Of a DNA stretch of 32,000 bases, positions 5,308-25,647 are shown piece by piece. Made by a program: the position numbers and the translations under genes. The DNA is taken from assembly GCA_017409845.1 (NCBI GenBank), contig JAFQRY010000023.1:4006-36005 (forward strand). Direction: 5' to 3'. Within the stretch, counting starts at the first letter, position 1. Each line of letters begins with the position of its first letter. This stretch comes from Clostridia bacterium. Its GTDB lineage: Bacteria > Bacillota > Clostridia > Oscillospirales > Acutalibacteraceae. The notes beneath the pieces were generated by a model. The model worked only from the letters and a program-made list of their open reading frames with translations, was not told the DNA's origin and ran no database searches.

Positions 5308-8300
5308 ATGAAAACATCATTGTTCAAAAAGCTTATCGCAATAACCCTTTCATTAACTCTCATTATGTCCTGCATGATGATTGCCGCACCGCACGTTCAT
5401 GCGGCAGACAGCATTGAGTTTATAACACGTGACGGAAAAAGAGTTGGTATAAAACAAATTACCATTGACGGCAAAACCTATTATGACATCAACGGCGGCG
5501 AGTCAACGATTGACCCGTCGGAAATATCTCCCATTGAGCTCTACAAAAAGCTGGTTGTTGCCGAACATAACGGCACCTCTCTTGCAAGAGCGTGGGCTAA
5601 CATAGCAAGCCTTATTTTTGAAAGTGCGGGCAATGAGTTCGGATATAACAACAATTTAGGTTATTCTTCAAATTATGACGAGCATTATACTAATGACGGT
5701 AACAGCAGCATAGATATAAACGTTGTGGATGCCCTTTCAAAAGAGAATTCCTGGAGTTCGGGTTATGCAAAATCCACCGGATGGGCAACAACAACAACAC
5801 TTAAAGCCGTTCAGGACAGCATGGTGAACGAAATTTGTTCCGCTCTTGATCGCTCAGGCCAGAACGGCGGTGTTTCCAGAGGCGCATGTATAGAATACTG
5901 TACGGGAAGTTCGGACGGTTTTCCTCTTCTCAACAATTCGGATAGCAGAACTGTTCTTTATAATATTGCCACAACCACAGATTACAGCAGCGGTTCAAAC
6001 AAAGCTGCATTTTCATCATTCGGTCTTGTGCTCTATGATTTTGAACTTATTCCTCTTGCGGATGACGATCTTGCGTTCATCACCGCGGCAGAAGGATATG
6101 AAAGCCTTGATGCTGCTGAAGCAGACAATGCACCAGGTGTAAAATATAACAGCACCAACGGAACACCCAACACAAGTTTTATCAGCAACCCCTCCGCTTC
6201 GGACACAACCGTTTCGGCTGCTTACAGCGAAACATCTTCAACAACGGTTTCAAACTACATGGAGTCATCTGAAACATACACATTCGGTCAAAGCACCGAG
6301 GTTTCAACTGAGTTCGGAGTTTCCTTCCCCCTTGTTGCAGATGCAAAAATGAGCGTTTCTATCGGCTTCTCTGCTGAACAGGCAATTTCAACTGCTTACG
6401 GCACGGAAGAGTCACTCACAAAAGAAACAACCACCGAAACTGTTGCAGAGGTTAATCTTCCTGCACATACACAAATAGGCATCAGCCAGCAGTCTGGTCA
6501 GACAGAGGTTGAGCTTGATTATGATTGCCCTGTTTACTTTAATTATAAAGTTGCCATTTTCGGTATGAACGGCGAATTTTATGCAGACAGCGTAGCAACA
6601 GAATCCTGGAGTACAGCAGGCTATGATCAGGGCGGTATATGCATAGGCTTCGGCACCGACACAAGCACCGGCGGCATTTCGGCCATTGACAATCTCTATA
6701 ACCGCGCAATCAAATTTAAGGATATGGACGGCTTTGAAGAGTCATACGGCAACTGCGACGGATACTATGAGAAACACGATGACGGCAATGCCTCGAAACG
6801 TTTCAAAGCAATTTCCTGGAACGATATTATTGATTCAACGCAAAATAACGGTCTTGACCTTACAGGCAAGGAAAATGTTTTTTATCTCAGAAACACTCTT
6901 CCTCTTTCCGCATCGGGCGGAACAATGTCATTCGTATCAACCAGCATGAACACCGATATTACCGGCATCGTTCCCCTCTACAATCTTGACTTTGTCCAGC
7001 TTGAGGGCGACGGAGTTTACAGTATTGCTCCCGGCGGCACGGTTGACTTCGGCAAAATTGCAACAGCAGGCTTTAATAAGCACAATGTTCCCTTCTACGG
7101 CTACATCAGCGATGGCGGCGAATGGGTTCTTTGCAATGCAGACGGAACGCAGACAGACTCCGTTGACGGCGGCTCACTTGATGATGTTTCAAACTATCAG
7201 GTATTCACCGGCACAAAGCCCGGCACCTACTATGCAAAATTCCTTATCGACGAAACGCTTTATGACAAGGTAGATGCTGAAGGCAAAATCAAGAATTCCA
7301 ACCTTTCATCAACTCCTATGGTCAGAATCAACGTAACCGAAACGGGTCACGACCATATCTGTGCAGAAGGTCCCTGGCAAACAACAGTTGCTCCCACTTG
7401 CACCGCAGAAGGTGAGCAGCACGCGAACTGCGTAACCTGCGGCAGAGTAATGTATACACAGCCGGTCGCAAAGCTCGACCATGTTCCCGTAACAATCACA
7501 ACTCCCGCCACCTGCACAAGTGAAGGCAGCATTAAAAATATTTGCGGCGTTTGCCTCGGTCTTATATCCTCCGAAACAACCGAAAAGCTTGAGCATGACG
7601 AAGGTGTATGGAAGATTGATTTTGAGGCAACGGCAGACCATCACGGTCAGATGAGCCGTTACTGCACAATGTGTGATACCGCACTTGAAAGCAGGGAATT
7701 TGACCTTCATACCCATCAGTTCGGATATGAAAGCATACTGCGTGAACCAACCTGCGTTGCTAACGGCGAAAAAGGACTGTTCTGCTCAATATGCAACGTA
7801 ATGTATGCAACAGAGCAGATTGAAAAGAGTGGTCACGGTGCAATCACAAGTATCATCGGCAAGGAAGCTGATTGTACACACGACGGCGAATCGCATCTGT
7901 ACTGCACAGATTGCGGAGAGCTTGTAGGCTCAAACACAATTCCTGCTCACGGTCATACAGCAGGTGCATGGGAAACCGTGATAGAGGCATCGTGCGATGT
8001 TAACGGTGAAAAGCATCAGAACTGCTCAATCTGCGGTGTGCTTCTCAACACAGATATTATTGAAGCACACGGTCATGCAGCGGCATGGATAACCGTTAAA
8101 GAAGCGGATTGTGAAACAACCGGCAGAGAAGAAAATGTCTGCACAATCTGTGATGCTGTTCTTGAAACAAGAGAAATCGCAAGAACAGAGCATATTCCCG
8201 GCAAATGGGAAATCACAAAGGATTCATCCTGCACACAGTCAGGTCTTATGCAGCAGACCTGTGCAATCTGCGGCGCACTAATAGGAGAACCCGTTGTTAT

Positions 8301-8970
8301 TGATGCACATGACCACGATAACGGAGCTTGGAGAACAGTTCTCGAAGCAACCTGCACAACAGATGGCGAAAGAATTAAGGAATGCACAATCTGTAGGGGC
8401 ACTATTGAATCGGAAGTTATTCCCGCACTCGGTCACGACGACGGAGTTTGGACAACAGCACTTGAAGCAAGCTGCGAAACTCAAGGCGAAAGACACAAGA
8501 ACTGCACACGCTGCGGTCAGCTTATCGAAAGCGAGAGAATTGATGCTCTCGGTCACACTCCCGGACCCGAAATGACCTGCACAACAGATCAGGTTTGCCT
8601 CGTTTGCGAAGAGATTCTCGTTCCTGCGGACGGTAAGAGCCACACCTGGACAGAATGGGAAACCTATAAGGAAGCTAAGTTCTTTACCGAAGAGCAGCAG
8701 AGAAGAGTATGCACCTCCTGCGACCTTGAAGAATACAGATTTGTTAAGGGTACATCAAAATGCCACAAGTATTTCCCGCATTGCGACGGCAGCGGCGAAG
8801 ACTGCTGGGCATGCAACACCTTGAGCAACACAAACGGCTTCTTCCGTAACCTTGGCAGATTCATCGTTTGGTTCTTCACTGAGAATATAGTTTCGATCAT
8901 TCTTTTCCCGTTCGCACACGGACATTTCCACGAGCATATCAACCTCGACGAAATATTCGGCTCGAAATAA
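5308..8970 (+). CDS. 1220-aa secreted/anchored protein: signal peptide, Ser/Thr-rich beta-rich N-terminal half, about 12 Cys-rich repeats, C-terminal hydrophobic segment
   Basis: AAGGAGG RBS. Signal peptide ending in the AAPHVHAAD region. Long uninterrupted ORF with coherent repeat structure. C-terminal FIVWFFTENIVSIILFPF hydrophobic stretch. Confidence 0.85.
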   Translation: MKTSLFKKLIAITLSLTLIMSCMMIAAPHVHAADSIEFITRDGKRVGIKQITIDGKTYYDINGGESTIDPSEISPIELYKKLVVAEHNGTSLARAWANIASLIFESAGNEFGYNNNLGYSSNYDEHYTNDGNSSIDINVVDALSKENSWSSGYAKSTGWATTTTLKAVQDSMVNEICSALDRSGQNGGVSRGACIEYCTGSSDGFPLLNNSDSRTVLYNIATTTDYSSGSNKAAFSSFGLVLYDFELIPLADDDLAFITAAEGYESLDAAEADNAPGVKYNSTNGTPNTSFISNPSASDTTVSAAYSETSSTTVSNYMESSETYTFGQSTEVSTEFGVSFPLVADAKMSVSIGFSAEQAISTAYGTEESLTKETTTETVAEVNLPAHTQIGISQQSGQTEVELDYDCPVYFNYKVAIFGMNGEFYADSVATESWSTAGYDQGGICIGFGTDTSTGGISAIDNLYNRAIKFKDMDGFEESYGNCDGYYEKHDDGNASKRFKAISWNDIIDSTQNNGLDLTGKENVFYLRNTLPLSASGGTMSFVSTSMNTDITGIVPLYNLDFVQLEGDGVYSIAPGGTVDFGKIATAGFNKHNVPFYGYISDGGEWVLCNADGTQTDSVDGGSLDDVSNYQVFTGTKPGTYYAKFLIDETLYDKVDAEGKIKNSNLSSTPMVRINVTETGHDHICAEGPWQTTVAPTCTAEGEQHANCVTCGRVMYTQPVAKLDHVPVTITTPATCTSEGSIKNICGVCLGLISSETTEKLEHDEGVWKIDFEATADHHGQMSRYCTMCDTALESREFDLHTHQFGYESILREPTCVANGEKGLFCSICNVMYATEQIEKSGHGAITSIIGKEADCTHDGESHLYCTDCGELVGSNTIPAHGHTAGAWETVIEASCDVNGEKHQNCSICGVLLNTDIIEAHGHAAAWITVKEADCETTGREENVCTICDAVLETREIARTEHIPGKWEITKDSSCTQSGLMQQTCAICGALIGEPVVIDAHDHDNGAWRTVLEATCTTDGERIKECTICRGTIESEVIPALGHDDGVWTTALEASCETQGERHKNCTRCGQLIESERIDALGHTPGPEMTCTTDQVCLVCEEILVPADGKSHTWTEWETYKEAKFFTEEQQRRVCTSCDLEEYRFVKGTSKCHKYFPHCDGSGEDCWACNTLSNTNGFFRNLGRFIVWFFTENIVSIILFPFAHGHFHEHINLDEIFGSK
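7344..8750 (+). repeat. intragenic array of about 12 diverged ~40-aa Cys-rich modules (consensus H-x-x-G-x-W-x6-C-x3-G-x5-C-x2-C-G-x12-H)
   Basis: Examples are GHTAGAWETVIEASCDVNGEKHQNCSICGVLLNTDIIEAHGH, DNGAWRTVLEATCTTDGERIKECTICRGTIESEVIPALGH and DDGVWTTALEASCETQGERHKNCTRCGQLIESERIDALGH. The repeats are visible at protein level; the DNA is diverged. Confidence 0.8.
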
Positions 8971-10430: not shown

Positions 10431-11102
10431 TTGGTGTGCTTTAACTACACCAAAGATACCCGTGGAGATTGTACTACACGTCACTATATCCGTGCAGATG
10501 CTATTGAAGCCATAGTAATCCTTGAACTCAAACATCTTGCAAGCTATCTCAAAAATGATGAAGAAATACTTGCGGATATACTTGAAAAGAAAACCAACAA
10601 GGATTTTCACGAACAGCAGAGATTTATTGAGAGTGAACTGCAAAACGCAATCTCCCGTCAGCAATCTGTAAACACACTTTACGAAAAGCTGTATGAGGAT
10701 AATGCAGTAGGAAAAGTAACTGATGAATGGTTTATGCACATGGCTCACAAGTATGAAACAGAACGAGTTGCACTCAAATCCAAGATAGCGGATTACAGAA
10801 CCAAGCTCGCAACAATGAACACTGTTCAGCAGAGCAGAGATATGTTCCTAAAAGCTGTGAGAAAAGTGATTGAAATGGAAAGCTTAACAGCTCCACTTGT
10901 GAGAGAGCTCATTGACCACATTGATGTTTACGAGACACAAGGAAAAGGCAAGAACAAAACACAGCGGGTGGTAATCCGCTACAGATTTGTGGGGTATATT
11001 GAACTGCCAACCAAGGAAGATGACTTTTACAAAAGCGACACACGGCAGGGAGTGCAGGTCAGCTATATACCGAGAGCATTACCGGAAAGCATAACGGCAT
11101 AA
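10431..11102 (+). pseudogene. C-terminal ~220 aa of a large serine recombinase (zinc-ribbon/coiled-coil/DUF4368-like part only); catalytic resolvase domain missing
   Basis: CFNYTKDTRGDCTTRHYIRADAIEAIV... followed by a coiled-coil and ...LVRELIDHIDVYETQGKGKNKTQRVVIRYRFVGYIELP matches the C-terminal architecture of TnpX/TndX-type recombinases (from memory). No N-terminal resolvase domain exists in any frame upstream. Confidence 0.75.
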
Positions 11103-11405: not shown

Positions 11406-12656
11406 TTAAAACGATTTGATAAGTTCAACCGTTCCTCTTATCCATTTTATCGCTCCGTTCAGACGGTAGCCTTTGAAACCTGATTCAACGAGAATTTCAT
11501 TGACTTCTTCGTCCGTAATATCAAGATTTATGAGCTTTGTGAAATCGACACCCTCTTGGGCAATGTCGCAAATGTAATCATAATAAGTGCCTGAGTATCC
11601 GAAATTTGTTGCATACATTTCGATGTTCTCAACAGCATTCTCAACGGTTTCTTCTGTATCTTCATAGAAAAGGCTGCGTCCGTTATCGTAAAGCGGATAG
11701 AAGCTTTCACCTTCGGATGTCACTTTGACCGCCATGTTTGAGAGATGTCTGTCATCCTGCCTTGTTATGAAATCAAGCAGAATCATACGGATAAAATCAT
11801 CCTTATATTGAGGTCTGACAGCAAGCAGGTTTTCATATTCGTTATCGGAACGAGCACCGTCAAAAAGTCTGCGGAAGTGTACGATATATTCATTTGAGAA
11901 ATCATAAAGAAATTCCGAAAAAATTGTGTTTTTATCGTGGAGATAAACGGGACAGCAAGTCACACCGAGCTTCTCTGCGAGTTTATAAACAGCGATTTCA
12001 GATTCAACATCGGTCACAAGAGGACTGATTCGCTGCTTATAAATGCCGTATTTACCGTCCATAACACCGTATCGTTTGATGTTGTAGCCTTCAGGAGTGT
12101 CGACGCTGTCGCCGACAAGGTCGATTTTCTGCAGAAAGACAGATTCAAAAACCTCTGTCATTATCTCGTCGATAGTTTCATCCACGTTGTGAGCAATCCA
12201 GAGCAAATCCTTGGGATGAATGCCTCGTGTAACCTTGGCAATCCTCAAAACATCGTATGCAGAAAGTCCGCATCTGAACAAGATTTTCTCAATATCACGT
12301 CTGTCGCGGTTTACAACTCGCTCAGAAAGAAAGCCGACAAACTGCTCGTGAGTCCAGTTGTTCTGACCGTGAGTGTATAGTTTTACAACATCGTTGTATT
12401 CGGGACTGATGAAATGAACGTTATAGGCAGTGTCGATAAGACCAATAATATCGTTACCCCATTTAAGATAAAACTCTGACTGACCGACGGGATTTTTCAT
12501 TCTTCCGTCAGTCGGTTTTTTTGCGTCAACGGGGATTCTGTAGGTCTTACCCACAAGCACGGCACCCTCGATTTTACCTTCTTTACAAAGGGTGCGGACA
12601 CGTCTGTCGCTGATATTCCATTTTTCTGCAGCTTTGGCAGTAGTCATAAAGTCCAT
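11406..12656 (-). CDS. HipA-family kinase-like protein with a fused N-terminal HTH (HipH/YjjJ-like architecture)
   Basis: GGAGG RBS. N-terminal HTH AAEKWNISDRRVRTLCKEGKIEGAV. The C-terminal region has the HipA_C catalytic-loop-like ITRQDDRHLSNMAV, followed by YPLYDNGRSL (compare the D-x-H-x-x-N and the (A/P)-x-YD motifs of HipA). Confidence 0.65.
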   Translation of the reverse strand: MDFMTTAKAAEKWNISDRRVRTLCKEGKIEGAVLVGKTYRIPVDAKKPTDGRMKNPVGQSEFYLKWGNDIIGLIDTAYNVHFISPEYNDVVKLYTHGQNNWTHEQFVGFLSERVVNRDRRDIEKILFRCGLSAYDVLRIAKVTRGIHPKDLLWIAHNVDETIDEIMTEVFESVFLQKIDLVGDSVDTPEGYNIKRYGVMDGKYGIYKQRISPLVTDVESEIAVYKLAEKLGVTCCPVYLHDKNTIFSEFLYDFSNEYIVHFRRLFDGARSDNEYENLLAVRPQYKDDFIRMILLDFITRQDDRHLSNMAVKVTSEGESFYPLYDNGRSLFYEDTEETVENAVENIEMYATNFGYSGTYYDYICDIAQEGVDFTKLINLDITDEEVNEILVESGFKGYRLNGAIKWIRGTVELIKSF

Positions 12657-12728: not shown

Positions 12729-13910
12729 TCACTCCGAAATTCTGATTTTTGCAACCGTAATTTTATAGGTTGATTCATAACACGGAGGGTTGTTGATGTA
12801 GTAAAGCGTTGTTCCGTCTTCCGAGAAAAAGAGCGATGGACTGTAACCGCATTTTACGTAAGGATCATCGGTCTGATACGGAATGGGATTATCAATCGGA
12901 GCAAAGGTTTTGCCGTAATCAAAGCTGATGAACATATCCGCACCCGTGTCGCTTTGCCCTCTGACGGAGTGTTTGCCTGTAACAACAAGTGTTCCGCATT
13001 CACCGCCGACGGGTGACCACGCAACGCACGGAGATGAGCCGAAAGTTTTGCCGCCTGCGGAAACTATCTTGCCGTAATCCGAAACGTCGCCCCAATTATC
13101 GAGAGAAGTTGACCTCTTGCAATAAATCGGATTCATAAAAATACCGACCATCTCATAAACTATCAAGTATTCGCCGTTGCCCATCTTTGCAATCGAAATC
13201 ATACCCGGTCTGAGCGAAGAATCGGAACAGGCAACGCATTCAAACTTCTCGCTCCAATTAACAAGGTCGGTTGTGTATTTATAAACAAGCTTCTGCGAAT
13301 GCTCGGGGTCGGAATCGTCTGAATAGAAACAGAAAAGTCTGCCTGTTTCTTCTTCATAAATCAAATACGGTTCCCACACGCCCCACTCTATTCCGCCTGC
13401 TTTGTCAACGTTGCAGAAAGCGTTGAACGATTTGCCCGCATCGTTGCTTGAATAAAGGGTTATCGTGCTGTCGGTTACCCCTTCGCCGTATATTGACGTT
13501 GCGGCAAGAATGACCGTGCCCTTTTCAAAATCGCCGATATCCGCAGGCAACTCATAAAGGAACGGCATCCATTCGTTCCAGTAGCCTTCGTTAAGGTTGT
13601 CTTTCACCGTGCAGACGTATTGCCACGTTTCAGCATCATCGTTGCTCTCGTATATGGGATAAGTGTCGCCCCACTTCTCAAATGTTGCAAGCAATTTGCC
13701 GTTATCAGCTTCATTCTTCTGATAGCGGAGCTTTATGATTGAGGGATATTCAACCACGTTTGCGTTGTTATCCGCAGGAACGTATATATCGTTCACGGAC
13801 TCAATCTCAAACTCAATCGGCAGATGCTTATATTCAAAATTCAGACCTGCACTCGGAAACAGCGTTCCAAAAACCGTCAGCAACGCAAGCAAAAAACGAA
13901 AAAGAACCAT
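12729..13910 (-). CDS. secreted BNR/Asp-box beta-propeller protein (sialidase/GH93-like glycosidase superfamily)
   Basis: Signal peptide MVLFRFLLALLTVFGTLFPSAG. Repeated Asp-box-like S-x-D-x-G-x-(T/S)-(W/F) motifs: SNDDAETW, SSNDAGKSF, ISFDYGKTF. Confidence 0.7.
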   Translation of the reverse strand: MVLFRFLLALLTVFGTLFPSAGLNFEYKHLPIEFEIESVNDIYVPADNNANVVEYPSIIKLRYQKNEADNGKLLATFEKWGDTYPIYESNDDAETWQYVCTVKDNLNEGYWNEWMPFLYELPADIGDFEKGTVILAATSIYGEGVTDSTITLYSSNDAGKSFNAFCNVDKAGGIEWGVWEPYLIYEEETGRLFCFYSDDSDPEHSQKLVYKYTTDLVNWSEKFECVACSDSSLRPGMISIAKMGNGEYLIVYEMVGIFMNPIYCKRSTSLDNWGDVSDYGKIVSAGGKTFGSSPCVAWSPVGGECGTLVVTGKHSVRGQSDTGADMFISFDYGKTFAPIDNPIPYQTDDPYVKCGYSPSLFFSEDGTTLYYINNPPCYESTYKITVAKIRISE

Positions 13911-15532: not shown

Positions 15533-18500
15533 TTAAGCCGCTGCATTCGCATTTATTTGGTCAATAATTCTTTTTATGCCAAGCCATACGGAAACATCAG
15601 TGAAAATATCAACAATGCTGCCTTGGTCGGAGAACGGTGTTTCTTTAAGCACAGAAAGATCTTTCATCATACCGTTGCGAACGATATACTCAACAATCTG
15701 ATTGACGAAATAAATCTGTCTGCTGTCAAGACTTGAACTGTTGAGATATTCAGCAAAAGCTTCTTTTGCGGCATTCATATCAAGTCCGACTATACCTCTG
15801 ACAAATTCGCCGAGAGGAACAGAGCCATAGTTTGCTTCGTAATCCTCTTTTGAACCTACTTCGCTCCAGAGGATTTCTTCGAGAGCCTTCACGTCGTCTG
15901 CATTGAGGGGAACATTGCTCTTCAGCTTCGCAATAACCTCGTTATCCTGATGCTGACGGATATAAAACTCTGCCTTTGCTTTGTAATCCTGCAAATCGTC
16001 ATTCTCAAGCTCGGATTCGTTCCAATCTATTGATATGATTTCATCATCAAATGTTGTTGTGTAGGTCGGGTGTGAAACAATAATATATTTAATCAAATCA
16101 CGCAGGTTTTCTCTGATATTTTCAAACTCATTGATGCCTGCGGTTTCAACGTAATCCGTATGCAGAATCTTATTTATCAGATCGTGCTGTGACATGATTT
16201 CGGGAATATTTGCTGTATTGGCAAGTGCATTAACCTTTTTAACAAGATCATTTCTTGCTTTGGAATACTTTTTGCCAACAAGATATGCGAGCTCGATTCC
16301 GTAGATAAGAGCATCGAATCGCAAAGCCTTCGCATCGTCTTCGTCGGGAATAACAAGCGGTGCGATTTCTTCTTTTATTTCGAGAGTATTCTCATATGTA
16401 AGCACATTGTAGTTATCGGGATTTGAGTAGAAATCAACATAACGGAGATGCTGTTTAACCGAAAAACTCTCTCTGTTAAGCTCCCTGACTTTGCGGACCA
16501 TATCTTCAACAAGCAGTTTTCTGAATGCGATAAGCTCGTTTGTCTGGTAATCCATATCCTGCAATTTATAGGCAATTTGTGCTTTGAGGTTGAATATTGC
16601 ACTCTGCAATGCAACGGCACTTGTTGTCTTGCCTTTGCCGCCCATTCTGAAGAATTCGAAGTTTCCGCAGAAATCGAAGATATAGAATATCTTTTTATCT
16701 TCGCCGTCGATGAGACTCGGGCAAAGACGGGTGCCTCTGCCGACCATCTGCCAGAACTTCGCTTTACTCATAACCTTCTTGAAGAAAACGAGATTCAGCA
16801 CTTCGGGCACGTCAATACCCGTATCAAGCATATCAACGGAAATTGCAATCTGTGGCAGTTTTTTTGGGTCGCTGAAATCATCAATTGCACTCTGTGCATA
16901 GTTGGTGTAATTATCAATCACCATTGCGTAGCCGTTGAGGTGAGGATATTCCTTGTTGAATATTTCAAGGATTTTTTCGGCGTGCTGATGGCTTTTTGCA
17001 AAAATGATTGACTTGCCGATTTTATTGCCGTAATCAATTTTCAGTCCGTGAGTCATAAGAACGTTGAGAACTTCACGGATTGTATCTTCGTTGAACACCC
17101 ATTCATTGAGTGCTGATGAATTGATTTTATCAGGCAATTCGCCGTTTTCATTTTCAAACGTGTTTTCGTATTCCTCTTTGTCTTCATCGGAAAGCTCGTC
17201 ATAAACGATGCCTTCTTCGATGAATTTGAGCTTTGTTTCAACGGACATAAAATCAACCAGATATCCGTCGGCAACAGCCTGTGCAAGCTCATAGGCATAG
17301 GTGGGAATACCGCTTTGCAGATTGAAAATTTCATATGTATTCTTTTCAATTTCGTCTTTCGGTGTAGCGGTAAGACCCACAAGAGGAGCATCGAAATAGT
17401 TGAAAATATCTTTGTATTTATTATAAACTGAACGGTGTGCTTCGTCGCAGATGATAAGGTCAAAATGTCCGCAGGTGAAAAGCTTGCCTTCATCGTCTTT
17501 AATATTATCAATGCAGTTGAACATCGTCTGATATGTTGAGAAAACGCAATGAGCATTGTAGTTTTCTTTATCGGTGCAAAGATTCGTGACCGAGAAATTC
17601 GGAAGAAGATTCACAAACGCACGCTTTGCCTGTGTGACAAGCGAAGTTCTGTCCGCAAGGAAAAGAACGTTCTTGACCCAGCCGTGATTGAGAAGCACTT
17701 TTGTGAGGGCAATAACCGTTCTCGTCTTACCCGAACCCGTAGCCATAACGAGCAGAGCCTTGCGGCGATTTTTGCCGTCAAAGCTGTCGCATACAGCACG
17801 GATTGCGCCTTCCTGATAATATCTGCCTGCGATTGCAGGGTCAACGGTGATATTCTTAAGGCTTGTCCTCATTGAACGCAGATTAAACATCTTTTCAAGG
17901 TCACGCTTTGAATAGATAGCGGCAACCTTTCTTTCGGGATACTGACCGTCAACGATTCTTGTATCAAAGCCGTTTGTGAGGAAGATTGCAGGGCGTCTGC
18001 CGTATTTCTTTTCGATTATATCGGCATAGAGTTTTGCCTGCTGTCTGCCGACGGCAACATCCTTGCAGGTGCGTTTTGCCTCAATAACAGCAAGGGGTTT
18101 GCCGTCATCGCCGTAAAGCACGTAATCGGCATAGCCTACGCCTGCGTTGTTGGGCATACCTTCAAGCTCAACCTCATTGAGCCAGTTTTTGCCTTCAATC
18201 CAGCCTGCATCAACGAGCATTGCATCAATATATATCTTGCGTGTCTGATACTCTGTGAGATCAAGAGGCTTTGGAACATAATTCTGCTGCTGTTCCTCAC
18301 GGCGGGCGGTGAGCTGTTCTTTGAGAGCTTTGTTTTCGGCAAGAAGCTGTTCAAAATTGATTTCAACCGCATTATCAATGAGAGTTTCGGTGTGTTTCTG
18401 AATAAGAGAAGCATCGAAGGTTCTTTCTTCATATTCGGCACCGTAGCAGCAGGCAACGAAATCCATAAAGATAAAAAGGTTTTCAAGGCAAAGCTCCGCC

Positions 18501-18817
18501 TGCCCGGCAGAAATCTTTTTGCCCTGATGGGCGGCGTTGTTGCCAAGCTTTCTGATAAGCTCCATCCTGCGCCATACGTCGTCGCTGACGATATCACGGA
18601 ACTCATCGGTATTCATTAAATTGACGAGGCTGTCCTGCCACGGGAGAACAAGCTCCTTATCGACGGAATACATCCATTTGACTGCAAACTCCATGGCACG
18701 GCGGCAGTTGATAACGGCAGCCGCCGCATCGATATGTAAAATCTTTTCCGCCGAAACCGCAACAGACGAAAAACTGTCAAACTGCGGATCTTGCGTAAGA
18801 AAATCAAAGTTGGTCAT
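15533..18817 (-). CDS. hsdR: type I restriction enzyme R subunit (HsdR) with an N-terminal DUF4145/HEPN-like module and an EcoEI-type C-terminal domain
   Basis: AGGTGA RBS. Nuclease/helicase motifs include MATGSGKT (Walker A) and the DEAH box (ICDEAHRS). N-terminal ...IRKLGNNAAHQ... module. 1094 aa. Confidence 0.95.
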   Translation of the reverse strand: MTNFDFLTQDPQFDSFSSVAVSAEKILHIDAAAAVINCRRAMEFAVKWMYSVDKELVLPWQDSLVNLMNTDEFRDIVSDDVWRRMELIRKLGNNAAHQGKKISAGQAELCLENLFIFMDFVACCYGAEYEERTFDASLIQKHTETLIDNAVEINFEQLLAENKALKEQLTARREEQQQNYVPKPLDLTEYQTRKIYIDAMLVDAGWIEGKNWLNEVELEGMPNNAGVGYADYVLYGDDGKPLAVIEAKRTCKDVAVGRQQAKLYADIIEKKYGRRPAIFLTNGFDTRIVDGQYPERKVAAIYSKRDLEKMFNLRSMRTSLKNITVDPAIAGRYYQEGAIRAVCDSFDGKNRRKALLVMATGSGKTRTVIALTKVLLNHGWVKNVLFLADRTSLVTQAKRAFVNLLPNFSVTNLCTDKENYNAHCVFSTYQTMFNCIDNIKDDEGKLFTCGHFDLIICDEAHRSVYNKYKDIFNYFDAPLVGLTATPKDEIEKNTYEIFNLQSGIPTYAYELAQAVADGYLVDFMSVETKLKFIEEGIVYDELSDEDKEEYENTFENENGELPDKINSSALNEWVFNEDTIREVLNVLMTHGLKIDYGNKIGKSIIFAKSHQHAEKILEIFNKEYPHLNGYAMVIDNYTNYAQSAIDDFSDPKKLPQIAISVDMLDTGIDVPEVLNLVFFKKVMSKAKFWQMVGRGTRLCPSLIDGEDKKIFYIFDFCGNFEFFRMGGKGKTTSAVALQSAIFNLKAQIAYKLQDMDYQTNELIAFRKLLVEDMVRKVRELNRESFSVKQHLRYVDFYSNPDNYNVLTYENTLEIKEEIAPLVIPDEDDAKALRFDALIYGIELAYLVGKKYSKARNDLVKKVNALANTANIPEIMSQHDLINKILHTDYVETAGINEFENIRENLRDLIKYIIVSHPTYTTTFDDEIISIDWNESELENDDLQDYKAKAEFYIRQHQDNEVIAKLKSNVPLNADDVKALEEILWSEVGSKEDYEANYGSVPLGEFVRGIVGLDMNAAKEAFAEYLNSSSLDSRQIYFVNQIVEYIVRNGMMKDLSVLKETPFSDQGSIVDIFTDVSVWLGIKRIIDQINANAAA

Positions 18818-19588: not shown

Positions 19589-20689
19589 TCATCCGAAATA
19601 TTGTTGCATTAAGCTGTCAAACAGGGTTTGTGATTCGTCAAGAGCTTTCTGCACAGCAAATTTTGATTTATCGACTTGTTCAACAAAGGCTGCAAATTGG
19701 TTTTGAAGGTCGATTGGCGGGATAGGCATATCTATTTTCAACAAATCTGCTTTTGTTAAACTTGGTATTGTAACAGCTTTATTTAATATCTCAAAATCAA
19801 AAAGAATGCAGTATAAATACAAATAGTCAACTAACAACACATCTGGTTTTGGTTCTAAGCCGAAAGCGGTATCGACATTCCAATATTTTTCTCGCATTAA
19901 AATAGGCTTATTAATGTTTCCTTTTCTTCCTATTATAACAGAATTCTCTTTTGTAATATAATCATCTGCATATCCCATTACTCCACCACTACCACAAATA
20001 GGATACTGTCCGTTGGGATTTTCAACATTCTTTTGATTTCTACCGTTTTTTACAGACAAAACATCTGCCCAAGTATAAGTTTCCCAAGATTGAGTGTTTG
20101 TGATAACGTCGCCAAACATCTCGACAAATCGGGCTTTAACGAGTTCATCAAGTTTGGCAAGTTGTTGTTTTCTCATTTCAATCAAGGTGTCTATTTTTTC
20201 TAAAACACCTACAATCTTGAGTTGCTCATTAAGTGGAACAGAGGGAAAAGATAGCTCCTTCAATGCTGAAACTGTAAAACTTGCTTGATTAACCGATTTT
20301 TTTGTTATATTGGGAATCTGTCTTAAAAATGACTGTGACGAAAAGTAATAAAATGCGTATTTGCTTATAACACAATCTGTATTCGGCCTCAACAAAAGAA
20401 GATTCATTCCATGAATAACTTCTTCCCTATCATTTTTTTGATAAAGAGCTGTTTTAGCAAGATGTTTTTCGCTGTTTATATGCGACATCAAAATATCTCC
20501 GTCTTGCAAAACATAATCACGATATTTCGATAAATCATTTATGCCTGCATAGCCCATTTTGTTACGGTCAACAGTTCGATTCGATATTGTTTCTATTCTT
20601 GTTATGGGATAACCTGAATCATCTAATCCCTGTTTGATATTCGCACCATTTCTTATAAGTGCAAAAAAGTCACCTAATCTCGCCATCAT
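19589..20689 (-). CDS. hsdS: type I R-M specificity subunit (HsdS), two target-recognition domains
   Basis: Bipartite architecture with a conserved central helix (LNEQLKIVGVLEKIDTLIEMRKQQLAKLDELVKARF) and a C-terminal helix (LQNQFAAFVEQVDKSKFAVQKALDESQTLFDSLMQQYF). Its ATG overlaps the upstream stop (ATGA). Confidence 0.9.
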   Translation of the reverse strand: MMARLGDFFALIRNGANIKQGLDDSGYPITRIETISNRTVDRNKMGYAGINDLSKYRDYVLQDGDILMSHINSEKHLAKTALYQKNDREEVIHGMNLLLLRPNTDCVISKYAFYYFSSQSFLRQIPNITKKSVNQASFTVSALKELSFPSVPLNEQLKIVGVLEKIDTLIEMRKQQLAKLDELVKARFVEMFGDVITNTQSWETYTWADVLSVKNGRNQKNVENPNGQYPICGSGGVMGYADDYITKENSVIIGRKGNINKPILMREKYWNVDTAFGLEPKPDVLLVDYLYLYCILFDFEILNKAVTIPSLTKADLLKIDMPIPPIDLQNQFAAFVEQVDKSKFAVQKALDESQTLFDSLMQQYFG

Positions 20690-21147
20690 CCTACCTCTTT
20701 AAACAATGCTATCAGTGCAACGATTAATGCAAACATTGACATAGTGTTCGAAAAAACTGTTGCAACATAATTTTTATCTTGTTCTCCATCCAAATCCTTA
20801 GCGGCCAAAAAAGTAAAAGCTGCCAATAAAAGAAGAAAAAATGCCCCTATTATGCTTATAGCTATCTCAATTAATGGCTTGTATTCTGCAGAATTAAATT
20901 CAAAAGTGAGTTTTATTCCTACAGCAAAAAGCCCTAAAGATGTCAGCAAGCAAAGAATAGAAAAACCATAAAGCAGACAAGTCGCAATGAACTTCATCCA
21001 TTCTCTCGAACTGCTGTATTCAGCATTTTCATCATATTGTGTTTTTTTGTTTGCATTAACAATAGCATGAGCAAGCTTGTCATAATCTATTTCAATATTT
21101 ACAGAATCAATATTATTAACAACAGTATTTCGCTTTTTCTTTGCCAT
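20686..21147 (-). CDS. 153-aa predicted integral membrane protein (3-4 TM segments), no family recognised, embedded between hsdM and hsdS
   Basis: Its start overlaps the hsdM stop (TAATG at 21149-21145) and its stop overlaps the hsdS start (ATGA at 20689-20686). Hydrophobic segments: FIATCLLYGFSILCLLTSLGLFAVGI, LIEIAISIIGAFFLLLLAAFTFLAA, MSMFALIVALIALF. Confidence 0.7.
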   Translation of the reverse strand: MAKKKRNTVVNNIDSVNIEIDYDKLAHAIVNANKKTQYDENAEYSSSREWMKFIATCLLYGFSILCLLTSLGLFAVGIKLTFEFNSAEYKPLIEIAISIIGAFFLLLLAAFTFLAAKDLDGEQDKNYVATVFSNTMSMFALIVALIALFKEVG

Positions 21148-22643
21148 TAAAGCATTTCCTCCAGCTCTTTAAGTCCATTGGTGATTTCGTCTTCAAGTGC
21201 AAAAAGTTCCGCCATAATCTCGCTTGTGGGCGGATATTCAACGGCAACGTATTCCGTTTTCTTGTATTTGTTGATTGAAAGGTCATAGTCATTATCAATA
21301 ATTTCCTGCTTGGGCACAAAGAAGCTCTGCTGAGTGCGTTCTCTTTCCGCTTCGCCGTCAGGGTTTCTGAATCGGGCAATAATATCGGGGATATCGTTTT
21401 CGGCAATCTCCGAGCGCTTATCGTCAAGGCTGAAGCCGTCGGCTTTCATATCGTAAAACCATACCTTGTCCGTGCCGCCGTGCTCCGTTTTGGTGAATAT
21501 CATTATTGCCGTTGATACACCCGCATAGGGCTTGAATACGCCCGAAGGCATCGAAACAATCGCTTCAAGGCGGTTGTTTTCTATTATCTCCTTGCGGATT
21601 GCCTTGTGTGCAGTCGATGAGCCGAAAAGTACGCCGTCGGGTACGATACAGGCGCATCTGCCGCCTATCTTAAGCATACGCAGGAACAATGCAAGGAACA
21701 AAAGCTCCGTTTTCTTCGTTTTGCAAACCTTGAGCAAATCAGCCGATACAGTATCATAATCAAGGCTGCCCTTGAAAGGCGGATTGGCAAGGATAAGCGA
21801 ATATTTGCCCTTATCCGCATTCTGGTCGGAAAGGCTGTCACGGTATTCGATATAGGGATTGTCTATGCCGTGGGTCATCATATTCATCGCACCGATACGA
21901 AGCATCGTTCTGTCCATATCGTAGCCGAAAAACATATGATTCATATAGTGGTCTTTTGCAATGCGGTCAAAGAAGATTTCTTCTCTGCGATGCTCTTTGA
22001 GATAATCTCCTGCCGCAACAAGGAAGCCCGACGTACCGCAGGCAGGGTCGCAGATAACCTCGTCTGCCTTGGGGTCCATCATTTCAACCATCATTTTAAT
22101 GATGTGTCGGGGTGTTCTGAACTGTCCGTTAAGACCCGACTGTGCAATCTTTGAAAGAAGATATTCGTATGTATCGCCCTTGGTGTCGCTTCCTTCGGCA
22201 ACAGCCATAAGGTCATAAATCTCGTCAAGTGCAGTAACTACCTTGTCCAGCAGAAGGGGAGTAGGCAACTTGAATATTGCATCGCCCATGTATTTTGAAT
22301 ATGCGCTGTTTTTATCCGAATGAAGATTCTTGATAAACGGGAACACCATTTCCTGCATAACGGAATACATTCTTTCTGCAGGGAAATCGTGGAATACCGA
22401 CCATTTAAGCTGATTGCCGTCTACCTTGCGGTCTCCGATTTCAACTTCACCCGAAAAAATGCTTTCAAAAGGCAAGCCGAGCATTGCACTCTCCTTGGCG
22501 TTGCGGTTATCAGCATCGTCAAGGTCACGGATAAACATAAGGTAGGTTATCTGCTCGATAACATCGAGGGGATTAACAAGTCCGCCTGCCGCAAAAATAT
22601 CCCAAAGGGAATCAATTTTATTTTTAAGTTCGCCTGTAATCAT
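21147..22643 (-). CDS. hsdM: type I R-M N6-adenine DNA methyltransferase subunit (HsdM)
   Basis: N-terminal HsdM_N-like ELKNKIDSLWDIF. AdoMet motif ICDPACGTSGF. Catalytic NPPF (LANPPFKG). The start was placed at ATG 22643 (GGGAGAAAG RBS), 2 nt after the fic stop; the track ORF begins at an upstream TTG. Confidence 0.95.
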   Translation of the reverse strand: MITGELKNKIDSLWDIFAAGGLVNPLDVIEQITYLMFIRDLDDADNRNAKESAMLGLPFESIFSGEVEIGDRKVDGNQLKWSVFHDFPAERMYSVMQEMVFPFIKNLHSDKNSAYSKYMGDAIFKLPTPLLLDKVVTALDEIYDLMAVAEGSDTKGDTYEYLLSKIAQSGLNGQFRTPRHIIKMMVEMMDPKADEVICDPACGTSGFLVAAGDYLKEHRREEIFFDRIAKDHYMNHMFFGYDMDRTMLRIGAMNMMTHGIDNPYIEYRDSLSDQNADKGKYSLILANPPFKGSLDYDTVSADLLKVCKTKKTELLFLALFLRMLKIGGRCACIVPDGVLFGSSTAHKAIRKEIIENNRLEAIVSMPSGVFKPYAGVSTAIMIFTKTEHGGTDKVWFYDMKADGFSLDDKRSEIAENDIPDIIARFRNPDGEAERERTQQSFFVPKQEIIDNDYDLSINKYKKTEYVAVEYPPTSEIMAELFALEDEITNGLKELEEML

Positions 22644-22645
22644 AA

Positions 22646-23722
22646 TCAATCTTTCTCCCTGTTCCAAGTATATGATGTGTATCTGCCGCCGCCGATTTTG
22701 ATGATATCACCGTTTTTAACCAGTTCGTTAAGCGTGCGCTGAATTGTTACCTGACTGATATCGGGGCATTGCTCGGCAATTTCGGATTTTGTAACCTTGC
22801 CGAGTGTATCTTTGATGATGTTTCTGATACGGTCGGGTTTTGAGCCTGCGGTAAGAAGCTTCACCCTCGATGAGAATTCACGGTAAGCCGCCGCAATAAC
22901 TCCGAGCATATAGCGAACAAACGGACCGTAGTCGTTTTTATTCTCGTGCCAACCAAAAGAACTTGACTGCAAAGCTTCGTAATAAGTCTCTTTTGTCTGC
23001 TCAATAATGCGTTCAATACTGATATATTTACCCACAATATAACCTGCACGGTAAAGAAGCAAAAGAGTGAGCAAACGGCTCATTCTGCCGTTGCCGTCAT
23101 TGTGCGGATGAATGCAGAGATAATCAAGAACAAACATAGGAATAAGAATAAGCGGATCCGCATCGCCTTTTGCGAGTTCAGTATCAAACGCTGTGCAGAG
23201 GTTTTCGATTGACTGCTGTGTTTCCCAAGCAGGAACAGGCTGAAAACGCACAAAACGGTTGCCGCTTTCATCTTCTTCTGCAATAACGTTGTCGCTATTT
23301 TTATAGTTACCACCAATAGATTTACCGCTGAATTTATATAAATCACGGTGAAGCTGAAGAATAAACGAAGGTCTGACGGGAATATAGTCATAGTTTTCGT
23401 GAATGGTTGCAAGCACGTCACGGTAACCGGCAATTTCCTGCTCGCTTCTGTTCTGGGGCAGAGCCTTATTCATAACAATCTTTTTGATTCGCTCATCAGA
23501 GGTATAAATACCTTCAATCTTATTTGATGATTCAGCACTCTGGATTTTTGCTATATCAAGCAAGCTTGTTAAAACATCTGCTTTTGCTTCGATAAACAAA
23601 GCCTGCTCACCTTTGTATTCATGGATTGTTGTCAGCAGCGAAACAATATCGGGTTCCAGCAACAACTTCCAGTTTTTGAAATCGTAATTTCTCATTGAGT
23701 TAAACTCACTTTCTGTATACAT
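22646..23722 (-). CDS. fic: Fic/DOC family protein with an N-terminal inhibitory-helix motif and a C-terminal winged-HTH
   Basis: Fic motif HPHNDGNGRMSR (compare HxFx(D/E)GNGRxxR). Inhibitory motif (S/T)xxxE(G/N) present as SNKIEG. C-terminal SEIAEQCPDISQVTIQRTLNELVKNGDI wHTH. Confidence 0.9.
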   Translation of the reverse strand: MYTESEFNSMRNYDFKNWKLLLEPDIVSLLTTIHEYKGEQALFIEAKADVLTSLLDIAKIQSAESSNKIEGIYTSDERIKKIVMNKALPQNRSEQEIAGYRDVLATIHENYDYIPVRPSFILQLHRDLYKFSGKSIGGNYKNSDNVIAEEDESGNRFVRFQPVPAWETQQSIENLCTAFDTELAKGDADPLILIPMFVLDYLCIHPHNDGNGRMSRLLTLLLLYRAGYIVGKYISIERIIEQTKETYYEALQSSSFGWHENKNDYGPFVRYMLGVIAAAYREFSSRVKLLTAGSKPDRIRNIIKDTLGKVTKSEIAEQCPDISQVTIQRTLNELVKNGDIIKIGGGRYTSYTWNREKD

Positions 23723-23869: not shown

Positions 23870-24172
23870 ATCTTTGAGTTTTTGCTTGATTTTTTAAATT
23901 ATATAATGTAATAAATTTCTTTCAAATATATTGTGCTTTCCAATCTTACATACTTTGTATGATACCGACGAGGCAACAGGAGTTTTATCTGAGAAATCGT
24001 CAAGGGAGATTTCTTGGATGATAAGTAATAACCTTGCCTTTTTATCGAATTGTAAAACCTCCTCTCTACCATAGAAGGATTTAGTTTTTTACAAAAAGGC
24101 GAGTAAAACTGTACTATAGGCAACCGACACAATTTTTTATAAATATTTTTGTATAACGAAAGGATATCAATT

Positions 24173-24376
24173 ATGAATAAAATTCCAAGAATGAGAACAA
24201 TTTCAGCGGCTATCAGGGAAATAAAAGAATCAGACCCAAACAGCTGCTTCACAGAGCACGCTCTTCGCAAAGCGATTTTGACAAAGCACATTCCAACTGT
24301 TATGGCAGGAAAGAAATATCTTGTTGATATGGATGTTGTTTATGCATATCTCGAAAACAACTTTCTGGCAGCATAA
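24173..24376 (+). CDS. xis: excisionase-type small HTH protein (Xis)
   Basis: AAAGGA RBS and ATG at 24173. 67 aa, immediately upstream of the integrase, with the HTH-like segment CFTEHALRKAILTKHIPTVMAGKKYLVD. Confidence 0.7.
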   Translation: MNKIPRMRTISAAIREIKESDPNSCFTEHALRKAILTKHIPTVMAGKKYLVDMDVVYAYLENNFLAA

Positions 24377-24426: not shown

Positions 24427-25647
24427 ATGAATAAGTCAAATGTTAATCTTCCCGATTTTAAAATTCCCAATGTTGATGTTCGCGGCGATGCTTACCGTAT
24501 CAGAGTTTCTGACGGCTACGATTCAAATGGCAAACAGAAAATGAGATACAAGACATGGCACCCCGAACCCGGAATGACCGAAAAGCAAATTAAAAATGAG
24601 CTTCTTTGACAGCGTGTTCTTTTTATGGAACAGGTCAAGAAGGGTATGGTTGTCAACAGAAAAATACGCTTTGAAGAGGCGTTCGATGAATGGATTGCTT
24701 TTGCAGGAGAAATGAATATTATTACTCATGCCTCTGCTAAAAGATATAAAACCTGCAGACCGCGTCTTGTTGAAGAGTTAGGGCATTACTATTTGTCTGA
24801 CCTCAGAAAAAAGGATATACAGGCATTTATCAAGAAGATAGGCACCGGCGACAAGAAGAATAAGGGTGCTTCTGAGAAATCTCAAAAAAACTATAAAACA
24901 GTTATATCCAACATTTATAAGTATGCCGTTGACAATGAATATGTTTTTGATAATCCCTGCAAAGATATTAAAATTGTCAAAAAAGAGACCAAACCCAGAC
25001 AGATATACTCGGTAGAAGAAGTTCAGACAATCCTCAATCTGATGGCAGACGAGCCCCTGAAATATTTTTTATTTCACATTTTGGCTTTTTTCTGTGGGTT
25101 CAGACGTGGAGAATTGCTCGGCATTGAATGGGGTGACATTTCGTTTGAAGAAAGAAAAATAAAAATCAGAAGAGCTTCTCTTTACGCAAACGATATCGGT
25201 ACATATACATCTACCCCCAAGACGGTCGGTTCAAGAAGAACGGTTGTTGTTTCGGGCGACGTTATTGATTTGCTGAAACGGTACAAAGCCGAACAGGATG
25301 AATACAAGAAGATGCTCGGCGATGCGTGGATTGACAATGACCGACTTTTCACTCAATGGAACGGTGCTCCGATGGGCACAAGCACTCCGCTTAATTGGTA
25401 CAGAGAGTTCTGCAAGAAGAACAATATAAGATATCTTTGCACTCACTGCTGCAGACATTTCAACATCTCGCTGATGATAAAAAATCACGTTGACGTAGTT
25501 TCAGTTTCAGCGGCGGCAGGTCATAAGGATATTACAACAACTCTTAATATCTATGCCGAAGAATTTGAAGAGGCAAACGCAGCAAGCGTAGAAACAGTTT
25601 CAAGCTGTATTTCAATTCCTTCCGTAACCAAAACAACAGAGGAATAA
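24427..25647 (+). pseudogene. int: tyrosine site-specific integrase interrupted by an in-frame TGA (24607-24609)
   Basis: The ORFs 24427-24609 (arm-type DNA-binding domain, VRGDAYRIRVSDGYDSNGKQKMRYKTW) and 24625-25647 (SAM-like plus catalytic domain, with R...H-x-x-R as HCCRH and the nucleophile Y of NIYAEE as candidate motifs) are in the same frame. They are separated only by TGA: ...KNELL*QRVLFMEQVKKG. Confidence 0.8.

Follow-up and report, generated by a model that had tools for sequence, protein, structure and literature searches.

An optional gene for a predicted three-pass membrane protein between hsdM and hsdS in type I restriction-modification operons of gut and rumen Clostridia

A membrane-protein gene inside a type I restriction-modification operon

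We analyzed a 32,000-nucleotide (nt) stretch of contig JAFQRY010000023.1 from a Clostridia bacterium of the Acutalibacteraceae; "window" denotes this whole stretch, and coordinates are window positions. The window carries a tight minus-strand operon for a type I restriction-modification (R-M) system, in which the genes follow one another, 5' to 3', as a Fic/SoFic-like gene, hsdM, an open reading frame (ORF) of 153 amino acids (aa), hsdS, a HEPN-like gene, and hsdR (Table 1). The 153-aa ORF, which encodes a predicted membrane protein, is the subject of this report. It overlaps both of its neighbors: the hsdM stop and the ORF start share TAATG (21149-21145), and the ORF stop and the hsdS start share ATGA (20689-20686). 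An initial annotation had pointed to these two overlaps, and both are present in the ORF list and the sequence.

A word-indexed search returned 322 homologues at 90% clustering. At 50% identity, 292 clusters reached E ≤ 0.001 in an exhaustive HMMER search, and 73 of these reached E ≤ 1e-10. Homologue lengths are nearly all 137 to 208 aa, and none of the 292 clusters contains a domain fusion. The ratio of nonsynonymous to synonymous substitution rates (dN/dS) was 0.10 to 0.24 in seven pairwise comparisons, and public gene callers predict the identical ORF in at least 24 contigs. Length, hydrophobic pattern, and motifs are preserved in hundreds of homologues, and this conservation, the dN/dS values, and a strong Shine-Dalgarno sequence identify ORF 20686-21147, on sequence grounds, as a genuine, conserved membrane-protein gene. 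The same evidence refutes the idea of a spurious ORF or noncoding spacer between hsdM and hsdS, to which we give practically no credence; all that speaks for it is the lack of an annotation or family name, homologues being listed in databases only as "hypothetical protein." The hosts are almost all uncultured Clostridia of human and ruminant guts (Oscillospiraceae, Acutalibacteraceae, Faecousia, Fimenecus, and Lawsonibacter).

The absence of a known motif, noted in the initial annotation, held up in the databases: the protein has no match at cutoff in Pfam, NCBIfam, PADLOC, or PHROGs, and no PADLOC family appears at E ≤ 1. A Pfam scan of 30 family members returned only subthreshold matches, scattered over 24 hydrophobic families with at most 3 of the 30 members each. 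DUF202/YidH (the label from one source for P0075), Yip1, L6_membrane, and Tetraspanin were rejected, all being below Pfam cutoffs and inconsistent across members. A PDB sequence profile search gave no match. Foldseek with the AlphaFold2 model found nothing at E ≤ 0.001 (best E, 0.26 in PDB and 0.24 in BFVD); the ExbB/TolQ fold appeared in its lists and was rejected at TM-scores of 0.2 to 0.3. The family was not found in 2.9 million viral contigs (IMG/VR), 50,697 phage records (GenBank), or 72,556 plasmids (PLSDB), and a phage or plasmid origin was rejected for this reason.

Table 1. Positions of the operon genes, of elements within the membrane-protein gene, and of neighboring features in the window
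Feature	Position	Strand	Remarks and basis
Membrane-protein gene, 153 aa, three-pass	20686..21147	-	ATG start; ORF list and sequence, homologue clusters, dN/dS, public gene callers
GGAGGA Shine-Dalgarno of membrane-protein gene	21157..21162	-	10 nt 5' of ATG, within final hsdM codons; from sequence
hsdM, type I methyltransferase subunit	21147..22667	-	Directly upstream of membrane-protein gene; Pfam N6_Mtase 6.9e-67 and HsdM_N
hsdS, specificity subunit	19589..20689	-	Directly downstream of membrane-protein gene, translationally coupled; Pfam Methylase_S 3e-37
hsdS Shine-Dalgarno (AAAGAGGTAGG)	20690..20700	-	Inside final four codons (K-E-V-G) of membrane-protein gene; from sequence
HEPN-like cargo gene, 247 aa	18844..19587	-	Between hsdS and hsdR; Pfam HEPN E=0.0016, below cutoff
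hsdR, restriction/translocase subunit	15533..18817	-	Pfam N-terminal DUF4145, C-terminal EcoEI_R_C
Fic/SoFic-like gene, C-terminal winged-helix domain	22646..23722	-	First in operon; Pfam Fic 3.1e-12; PADLOC SoFic 1.9e-36
N-terminal motif, N..I....N.EIDYDKLAxAIVxA	21049..21114	-	Codons 12-33; cytoplasmic (predicted); top-residue frequency 0.68
Transmembrane helix 1	20899..20997	-	Codons 51-83; hydropathy, AlphaFold2 helix 46-82; variable, top-residue frequency 0.25
Transmembrane helix 2	20797..20877	-	Codons 91-117; hydropathy, AlphaFold2 helix 90-120; variable, top-residue frequency 0.26
Loop between helices 2 and 3, family AKEIDxEKDRNY, window AKDLDGEQDKNY	20764..20802	-	Codons 116-128; cytoplasmic (predicted); top-residue frequency 0.57
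Transmembrane helix 3, FS..VS..ALIVAL.AL.K	20698..20766	-	Codons 128-150; conserved, small-residue face; top-residue frequency 0.65; AlphaFold2 helix 125-152
Tyrosine integrase	24625-25647	+	Just upstream of operon
Small helix-turn-helix (HTH)-like ORF	24149-24376	+	Just upstream of operon
DUF4368 recombinase fragment	10431-11102	+	Downstream of operon
416-aa protein	11406-12656	-	N-terminal HTH and weak HipA_C-like kinase domain
393-aa protein without family	12729-13910	-	Adjoins the 416-aa protein
1220-aa protein	5308-8970	+	Weak aerolysin-like domain (Pfam Aerolysin E=4.7e-6, residues 297-417)

Conserved, predicted cytoplasmic elements flank variable membrane helices

Residues 1 to 50 are polar and basic, beginning with MAKKKR, and Kyte-Doolittle windows mark three hydrophobic segments after them, at about the codons given in Table 1. 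The initial annotation had described a polar N terminus of about 50 residues and three to four hydrophobic segments; the N terminus and three segments are recovered, and neither hydropathy nor AlphaFold2 supports a fourth. The AlphaFold2 model, built on a 120-sequence alignment, has a mean predicted local distance difference test score (pLDDT) of 79 and a predicted TM-score (pTM) of 0.58. In it, residues 1 to 12 are disordered, residues 22 to 42 form a cytoplasmic helix, and the three transmembrane (TM) helices exceed a pLDDT of 90.

Conservation, measured as top-residue frequency over 146 diverse representatives, is uneven along the protein. The linker, TM1, loop 1, and TM2 reach 0.15 to 0.26, and the N-terminal motif, the TM2-TM3 loop, and TM3 are far more constrained (Table 1). 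Within the N-terminal motif, I20, D21, Y22, K24, and L25 are invariant; in the TM2-TM3 loop, E122 is invariant and A116, K117, E118, D124, and Y127 are nearly so. Third codon positions of the EIDYDKLA motif vary freely. Since synonymous sites vary, the constraint acts on the protein, and a DNA- or RNA-level cause of motif conservation was rejected. The low pLDDT of the N-terminal motif in the model suggests that it probably folds on a partner.

Over the same representatives, the mean number of lysines plus arginines is 11.2 in the N-tail, 0.4 in loop 1, 2.7 in loop 2, and 0.1 in the C-tail, which comprises the three residues after TM3. Because these counts place both conserved polar elements inside, the predicted topology is N-in/C-out, with the N-terminal domain and the TM2-TM3 loop facing the cytoplasm.

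The family ends in a conserved K-G-V-G, and the AAGGGGGTGGGATGA ending is present in most homologous loci. This conservation arises partly because those codons encode the hsdS ribosome-binding site (AAGGGGGTGGGATGA). MifM is an upstream membrane ORF that regulates YidC2, and the present ORF might likewise serve mainly to set or gate HsdS synthesis, by translational coupling or by pausing ribosomes close to the ribosome-binding site of hsdS. Its stop overlaps the hsdS start, the hsdS Shine-Dalgarno sequence lies inside its conserved last codons, and its C-terminal third is the most conserved hydrophobic part of the protein. We nevertheless regard such a purely translational role as very improbable: there is no stable RNA structure at the junction (folding of 20655-20775 on the minus strand against shuffles gave z = +0.64), most relatives manage with a direct hsdM-hsdS overlap, and the invariant N-terminal motif, which is under protein-level selection, would be left unexplained. 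A MifM/SecM-type ORF with an mRNA structure that sequesters the ribosome-binding site was rejected on the same z value.

The gene stays directly in front of hsdS across R-M lineages

Using window proteins as tblastn queries, we surveyed 15 metagenome loci and 31 loci of species-representative genomes. Where the flanks were long enough, nearly all loci have hsdM upstream of the membrane-protein gene and hsdS followed by hsdR downstream of it, with all of these genes on one strand. The ORF directly 3' of the membrane-protein gene is a Pfam Methylase_S protein in 29 of 33 loci, window included, and in the majority of loci its start shares 4 or 1 nt with the membrane-gene stop. The gene order recurred in three additional homologues that were sampled independently. 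These homologues in other hsd operons, with hsdS downstream, and the dN/dS values bear out the earlier proposal that the ORF is a real gene cotranslated with its hsd neighbors.

Three R-M lineages carry the membrane-protein gene. Their HsdM proteins are about 80%, about 55% (L016, L019, and L022), or about 26% (L043 and L046) identical to that of the window; in the most distant lineage, HsdM has 592 aa and HsdR has a different architecture. Pfam confirmed the R-M gene assignments for L043. The gene thus resembles other accessory genes of type I R-M systems in lying inside the hsdM/hsdS/hsdR operon, on the same strand, and across independent R-M lineages. From this gene order, a functional tie of the membrane protein to the R-M system is likely.

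A few copies lack hsd neighbors. One locus (L039) retains a remnant of hsdM, and intact copies without hsd neighbors occur in L018/L037 (Lawsonibacter), where they adjoin a Fic gene and a SpoVT/AbrB gene, and in L024. These intact hsd-free copies indicate that the protein is not lethal when unaccompanied.

No recurrent partner gene emerged: no other family on the plus strand occurs in more than 4 of 26 operons carrying the membrane-protein gene. The initial annotation had proposed a partnership with the HEPN-motif protein of the window, which found no backing, since none of the other loci with the membrane-protein gene encodes a homologue of the HEPN-like protein. Partnership with Fic was rejected as well. 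A Fic gene, 60 to 75% identical, precedes hsdM in most loci of the clade whether or not the membrane-protein gene is present.

The gene is facultative and shares its slot with unrelated membrane proteins

We took the 80 closest relatives of the window hsdM (76 to 96% identity), 60 of which have hsdS downstream. In 31 of these 60, hsdM joins hsdS directly; 7 carry the present membrane-protein family in between, 4 carry a different small ORF with at least two TM segments, and 18 have other inserts or gaps. An obligate type I core subunit would be present in all close relatives, and this one is not. To judge from gene content, the membrane-protein gene is an optional component of type I R-M operons in gut and rumen Clostridia.

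A second family, whose members have about 116 aa, three TM segments, and the invariant motifs LPNPFECFG and FSFAWWW, was detected at 18 genome loci; hsdM and hsdS both flank 14 of these, and in two loci (L003/L150 and L146) the present family occurs as well. Examples of the second family lie at L078 7496-7846, L110 1973-2335, L003 7664-8008, and in L133-L150. In L047, whose HsdM is closest to that of the window (96% identity), the slot is filled by an unrelated 110-aa protein with three TM segments. This third type of small TM protein (103 to 110 aa) stands directly 5' of hsdS in the only two genome loci in which we found it (L047 7615-7947 and L048 1671-1982). Homology among the three families of the slot was rejected, with hhalign probabilities below 1%. 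Neither the facultative nature of the gene nor the unrelated membrane proteins in the same slot had been recognized in the initial annotation.

More generally, the slot between hsdM and hsdS in this R-M clade is variable and holds many different accessory genes as cargo. These include RhuM (L011 6995-7999, L057 7496-8512, and L155 3489-4508), Bro-N (L017 7145-8008 and L049 7448-8365), Schlafen AlbA_2 (L023 7231-7980), a kinase-like protein (L020 6862-8001), and an unknown 200-aa family (L007 7418-8020, L021 7408-8001, and L024 7337-7945). The 200-aa family accompanies the membrane-protein gene even outside an hsd operon (L024). All five kinds occur upstream of the membrane-protein gene, and such extra cargo, when present, lies between hsdM and the membrane-protein gene, never between the membrane-protein gene and hsdS. 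The slot between hsdS and hsdR is also variable; proteins beginning M..(I/L)(L/I)GNGFDL recur there, in 4 and 3 membrane-gene operons (L053 10482-11594; L030 9708-10967).

This variability raises the possibility that the membrane protein is autonomous cargo: it might act alone at the membrane, blocking DNA injection as superinfection-exclusion proteins do, for instance, and reside in hsd operons only because the hsdM-hsdS junction is a recombination hot spot for cassettes. An insert or gap in 29 of 60 close relatives, the many cargo families, and the few copies outside hsd operons are in keeping with this idea, as is the lack of covariation: the N-terminal motif does not vary with the R-M clade, and HsdS, in its conserved central and C-terminal regions, does not differ between operons that have the membrane-protein gene and those that lack it, with no coadaptation seen. 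On the other hand, the gene stays directly 5' of hsdS, with the start/stop overlap kept, despite other cargo; the flanks of some clades that carry it diverge too far (HsdM, 26% identity) for simple homologous exchange; and it is absent from the viral contigs, phages, and plasmids searched, whereas superinfection-exclusion genes are typically prophage-borne. We therefore hold autonomous cargo to be unlikely.

A possible membrane tether or guard of the R-M complex

Our preferred reading, which we put forward tentatively, is that the membrane protein is a tether or localizer that brings the R-M core to the cytoplasmic side of the membrane. The TM helices would anchor the protein, and cotranslational insertion of the nascent chain would keep the polycistronic mRNA at the membrane. 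The newly made HsdS/HsdM complex would dock on the juxtamembrane loop and on the N-terminal motif, which is short, invariant, and probably disordered, and TM3 could mediate self-association via its small-residue face. Phage, conjugative, or transforming DNA would then meet restriction at its point of entry, before anti-restriction or methylation could protect it. The pairing of conserved cytoplasmic elements with variable TM1 and TM2 fits an anchor with a docking site, and unrelated three-TM proteins in the slot are what one would expect if the role depended on membrane insertion more than on any one fold. Tethering also fits the fixed coupling to hsdS, the intact hsd-free copies, and reports of membrane association of EcoKI (see below).

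Several observations weigh against tethering. The gene is dispensable, given that direct hsdM-hsdS junctions outnumber carriers by 31 to 7 among the closest hsdM relatives, and the conserved regions of HsdS are alike in both groups. The N-terminal motif does not change even between clades whose HsdM proteins are just 26% identical, which gives no sign of a docking surface specific to a clade. The slot's two other TM families have almost no cytoplasmic domain for docking, and two of the families can co-occur (L003 and L146), which is odd for simple anchors. Finally, the cargo of hsd operons generally consists of abortive-infection toxins, which favors an effector.

Such an effector could work as a guard similar to PrrC, a possibility that we rate as nearly as likely as tethering. 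The protein would be inactive while its N-terminal motif binds the R-M core; when a phage anti-restriction protein disables or distorts the complex, the membrane protein would be released, oligomerize through TM3, and permeabilize or depolarize the membrane, aborting the infection. Like PrrC, the gene is embedded in an hsd operon and cotranslated with core subunits. It is facultative and is swapped among near-identical R-M operons in the manner of defense effectors, as the different TM protein beside the 96% identical HsdM of L047 illustrates; several unrelated small TM families use the slot and can stack; the neighboring cargo is toxin-like (Fic, HEPN-like, RhuM, and Schlafen); and the conserved small-residue face of TM3 suggests oligomerization. 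However, no PADLOC effector model matches, the TM helices lack conserved polar or charged residues while TM1 and TM2 vary freely, and the intact hsd-free copies (L018/L037 and L024) imply that the free protein is not simply toxic.

Tethering and guarding share a broader proposition, toward which we lean slightly: that small multipass membrane proteins form an unrecognized accessory class of type I R-M systems, comprising at least two unrelated families and probably a third, encoded directly before hsdS. Members of this class would physically couple the complex to the membrane, either positioning restriction at the site of DNA entry or turning inhibition of the complex into membrane-level abortive infection.

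Other features of the window

By its EcoEI_R_C C terminus, the window HsdR is type IB-like, and its N-terminal DUF4145 (HEPN-like) domain is fused to this type IB-like body. The 247-aa HEPN-like protein contains RNLCDH, an Rx4H motif. The window holds only one hsdS copy, and a phase-variable hsdS shufflon was rejected on that basis. A tyrosine integrase, an HTH-like ORF, and a DUF4368 fragment near the R-M operon (Table 1) make it probable that the operon is part of an integrative island. Downstream of the operon, the adjoining 416-aa and 393-aa proteins are possibly a toxin-antitoxin-like or defense pair. The 1220-aa protein with a weak aerolysin-like domain lies farther along on the plus strand.

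Comparison with known systems

PrrC and RloC are known accessory genes inside type I operons. Other such genes include DUF1016, RhuM, Fic, and GIY-YIG (PMC9881135 lists several). PrrC, in the EcoprrI system, is an accessory effector embedded in a type I R-M locus and masked by the type I enzyme (PMC12707154). Like PrrC in the type IC hsd locus of EcoprrI and like the rlo "restriction-linked ORFs," the present gene is a facultative accessory gene in a type I operon, coexpressed with it and presumed to be functionally coupled. PrrC differs in being a soluble ABC-ATPase-like tRNA anticodon nuclease encoded between hsdS and hsdR, whereas here a 153-aa three-pass membrane protein is encoded between hsdM and hsdS. 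Homology to PrrC/RloC was rejected, as no ABC-ATPase or anticodon nuclease domain was matched in Pfam, NCBIfam, or PADLOC.

Small multi-TM proteins are familiar components of defense systems, among them RexB (RexAB), KwaA (Kiwa), and the TM effectors of cyclic oligonucleotide-based antiphage signaling systems (CBASS) and retrons. The present protein is also small, with a number of TM helices inside the two-to-four range of that group, and is encoded beside a cytoplasmic DNA- or signal-sensing partner; both groups are diverse in sequence and exchangeable. It has no PADLOC match, however, its partner is a classical type I R-M system, and it conserves a cytoplasmic peptide motif, not its TM helices. 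Holins and superinfection-exclusion proteins resemble it in small size and several TM helices. Holins have a charged C-terminal tail, whereas this protein has a polar N-terminal domain, a three-residue C terminus with a mean K+R of 0.1, and no lysis-cassette context; a holin was rejected, with no match to a PHROG, a BFVD fold, a viral contig, or a phage. A superinfection-exclusion protein, which would be coded by a prophage or phage, was likewise rejected, as there are no family members in viral contigs or phages and the context is an hsd operon.

The initial annotation took type I R-M complexes to be cytoplasmic, which as a plain statement goes too far. EcoKI subunits are reported to enter the membrane fraction only with HsdS, the enzyme being membrane-bound via HsdS (Holubova et al. 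2000, as reported in PMC519025), and localization was reported to be family dependent (Holubova 2004, cited in PMC2481252). EcoKI therefore also links a type I complex to the cytoplasmic membrane through HsdS, the subunit to whose gene the membrane-protein gene is coupled here. A dedicated membrane subunit was not described for EcoKI, whereas here a separate, operon-encoded membrane protein is found in a minority of related operons.

The open-access papers searched in full text describe neither a conserved integral membrane protein encoded in hsd operons before hsdS nor the recurrence of unrelated small TM proteins there. Accessory genes in hsd operons are known as a kind, but this membrane protein is in none of the curated protein-family or defense-system libraries. 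To our knowledge, type I R-M enzymes have been treated as soluble three-subunit machines, and the reports of EcoKI at the membrane never had a molecular handle. If our preferred reading is true, an operon-encoded membrane protein coupled to hsdS offers a testable route to membrane-localized restriction at DNA entry; if the guard reading is true instead, it would be the first membrane-acting guard of an R-M system. Such a protein may explain part of the difficulty in transforming these organisms, and, along with the other families of the slot, it marks the hsdM-hsdS junction as a site to search for new defense accessories in gut Firmicutes.

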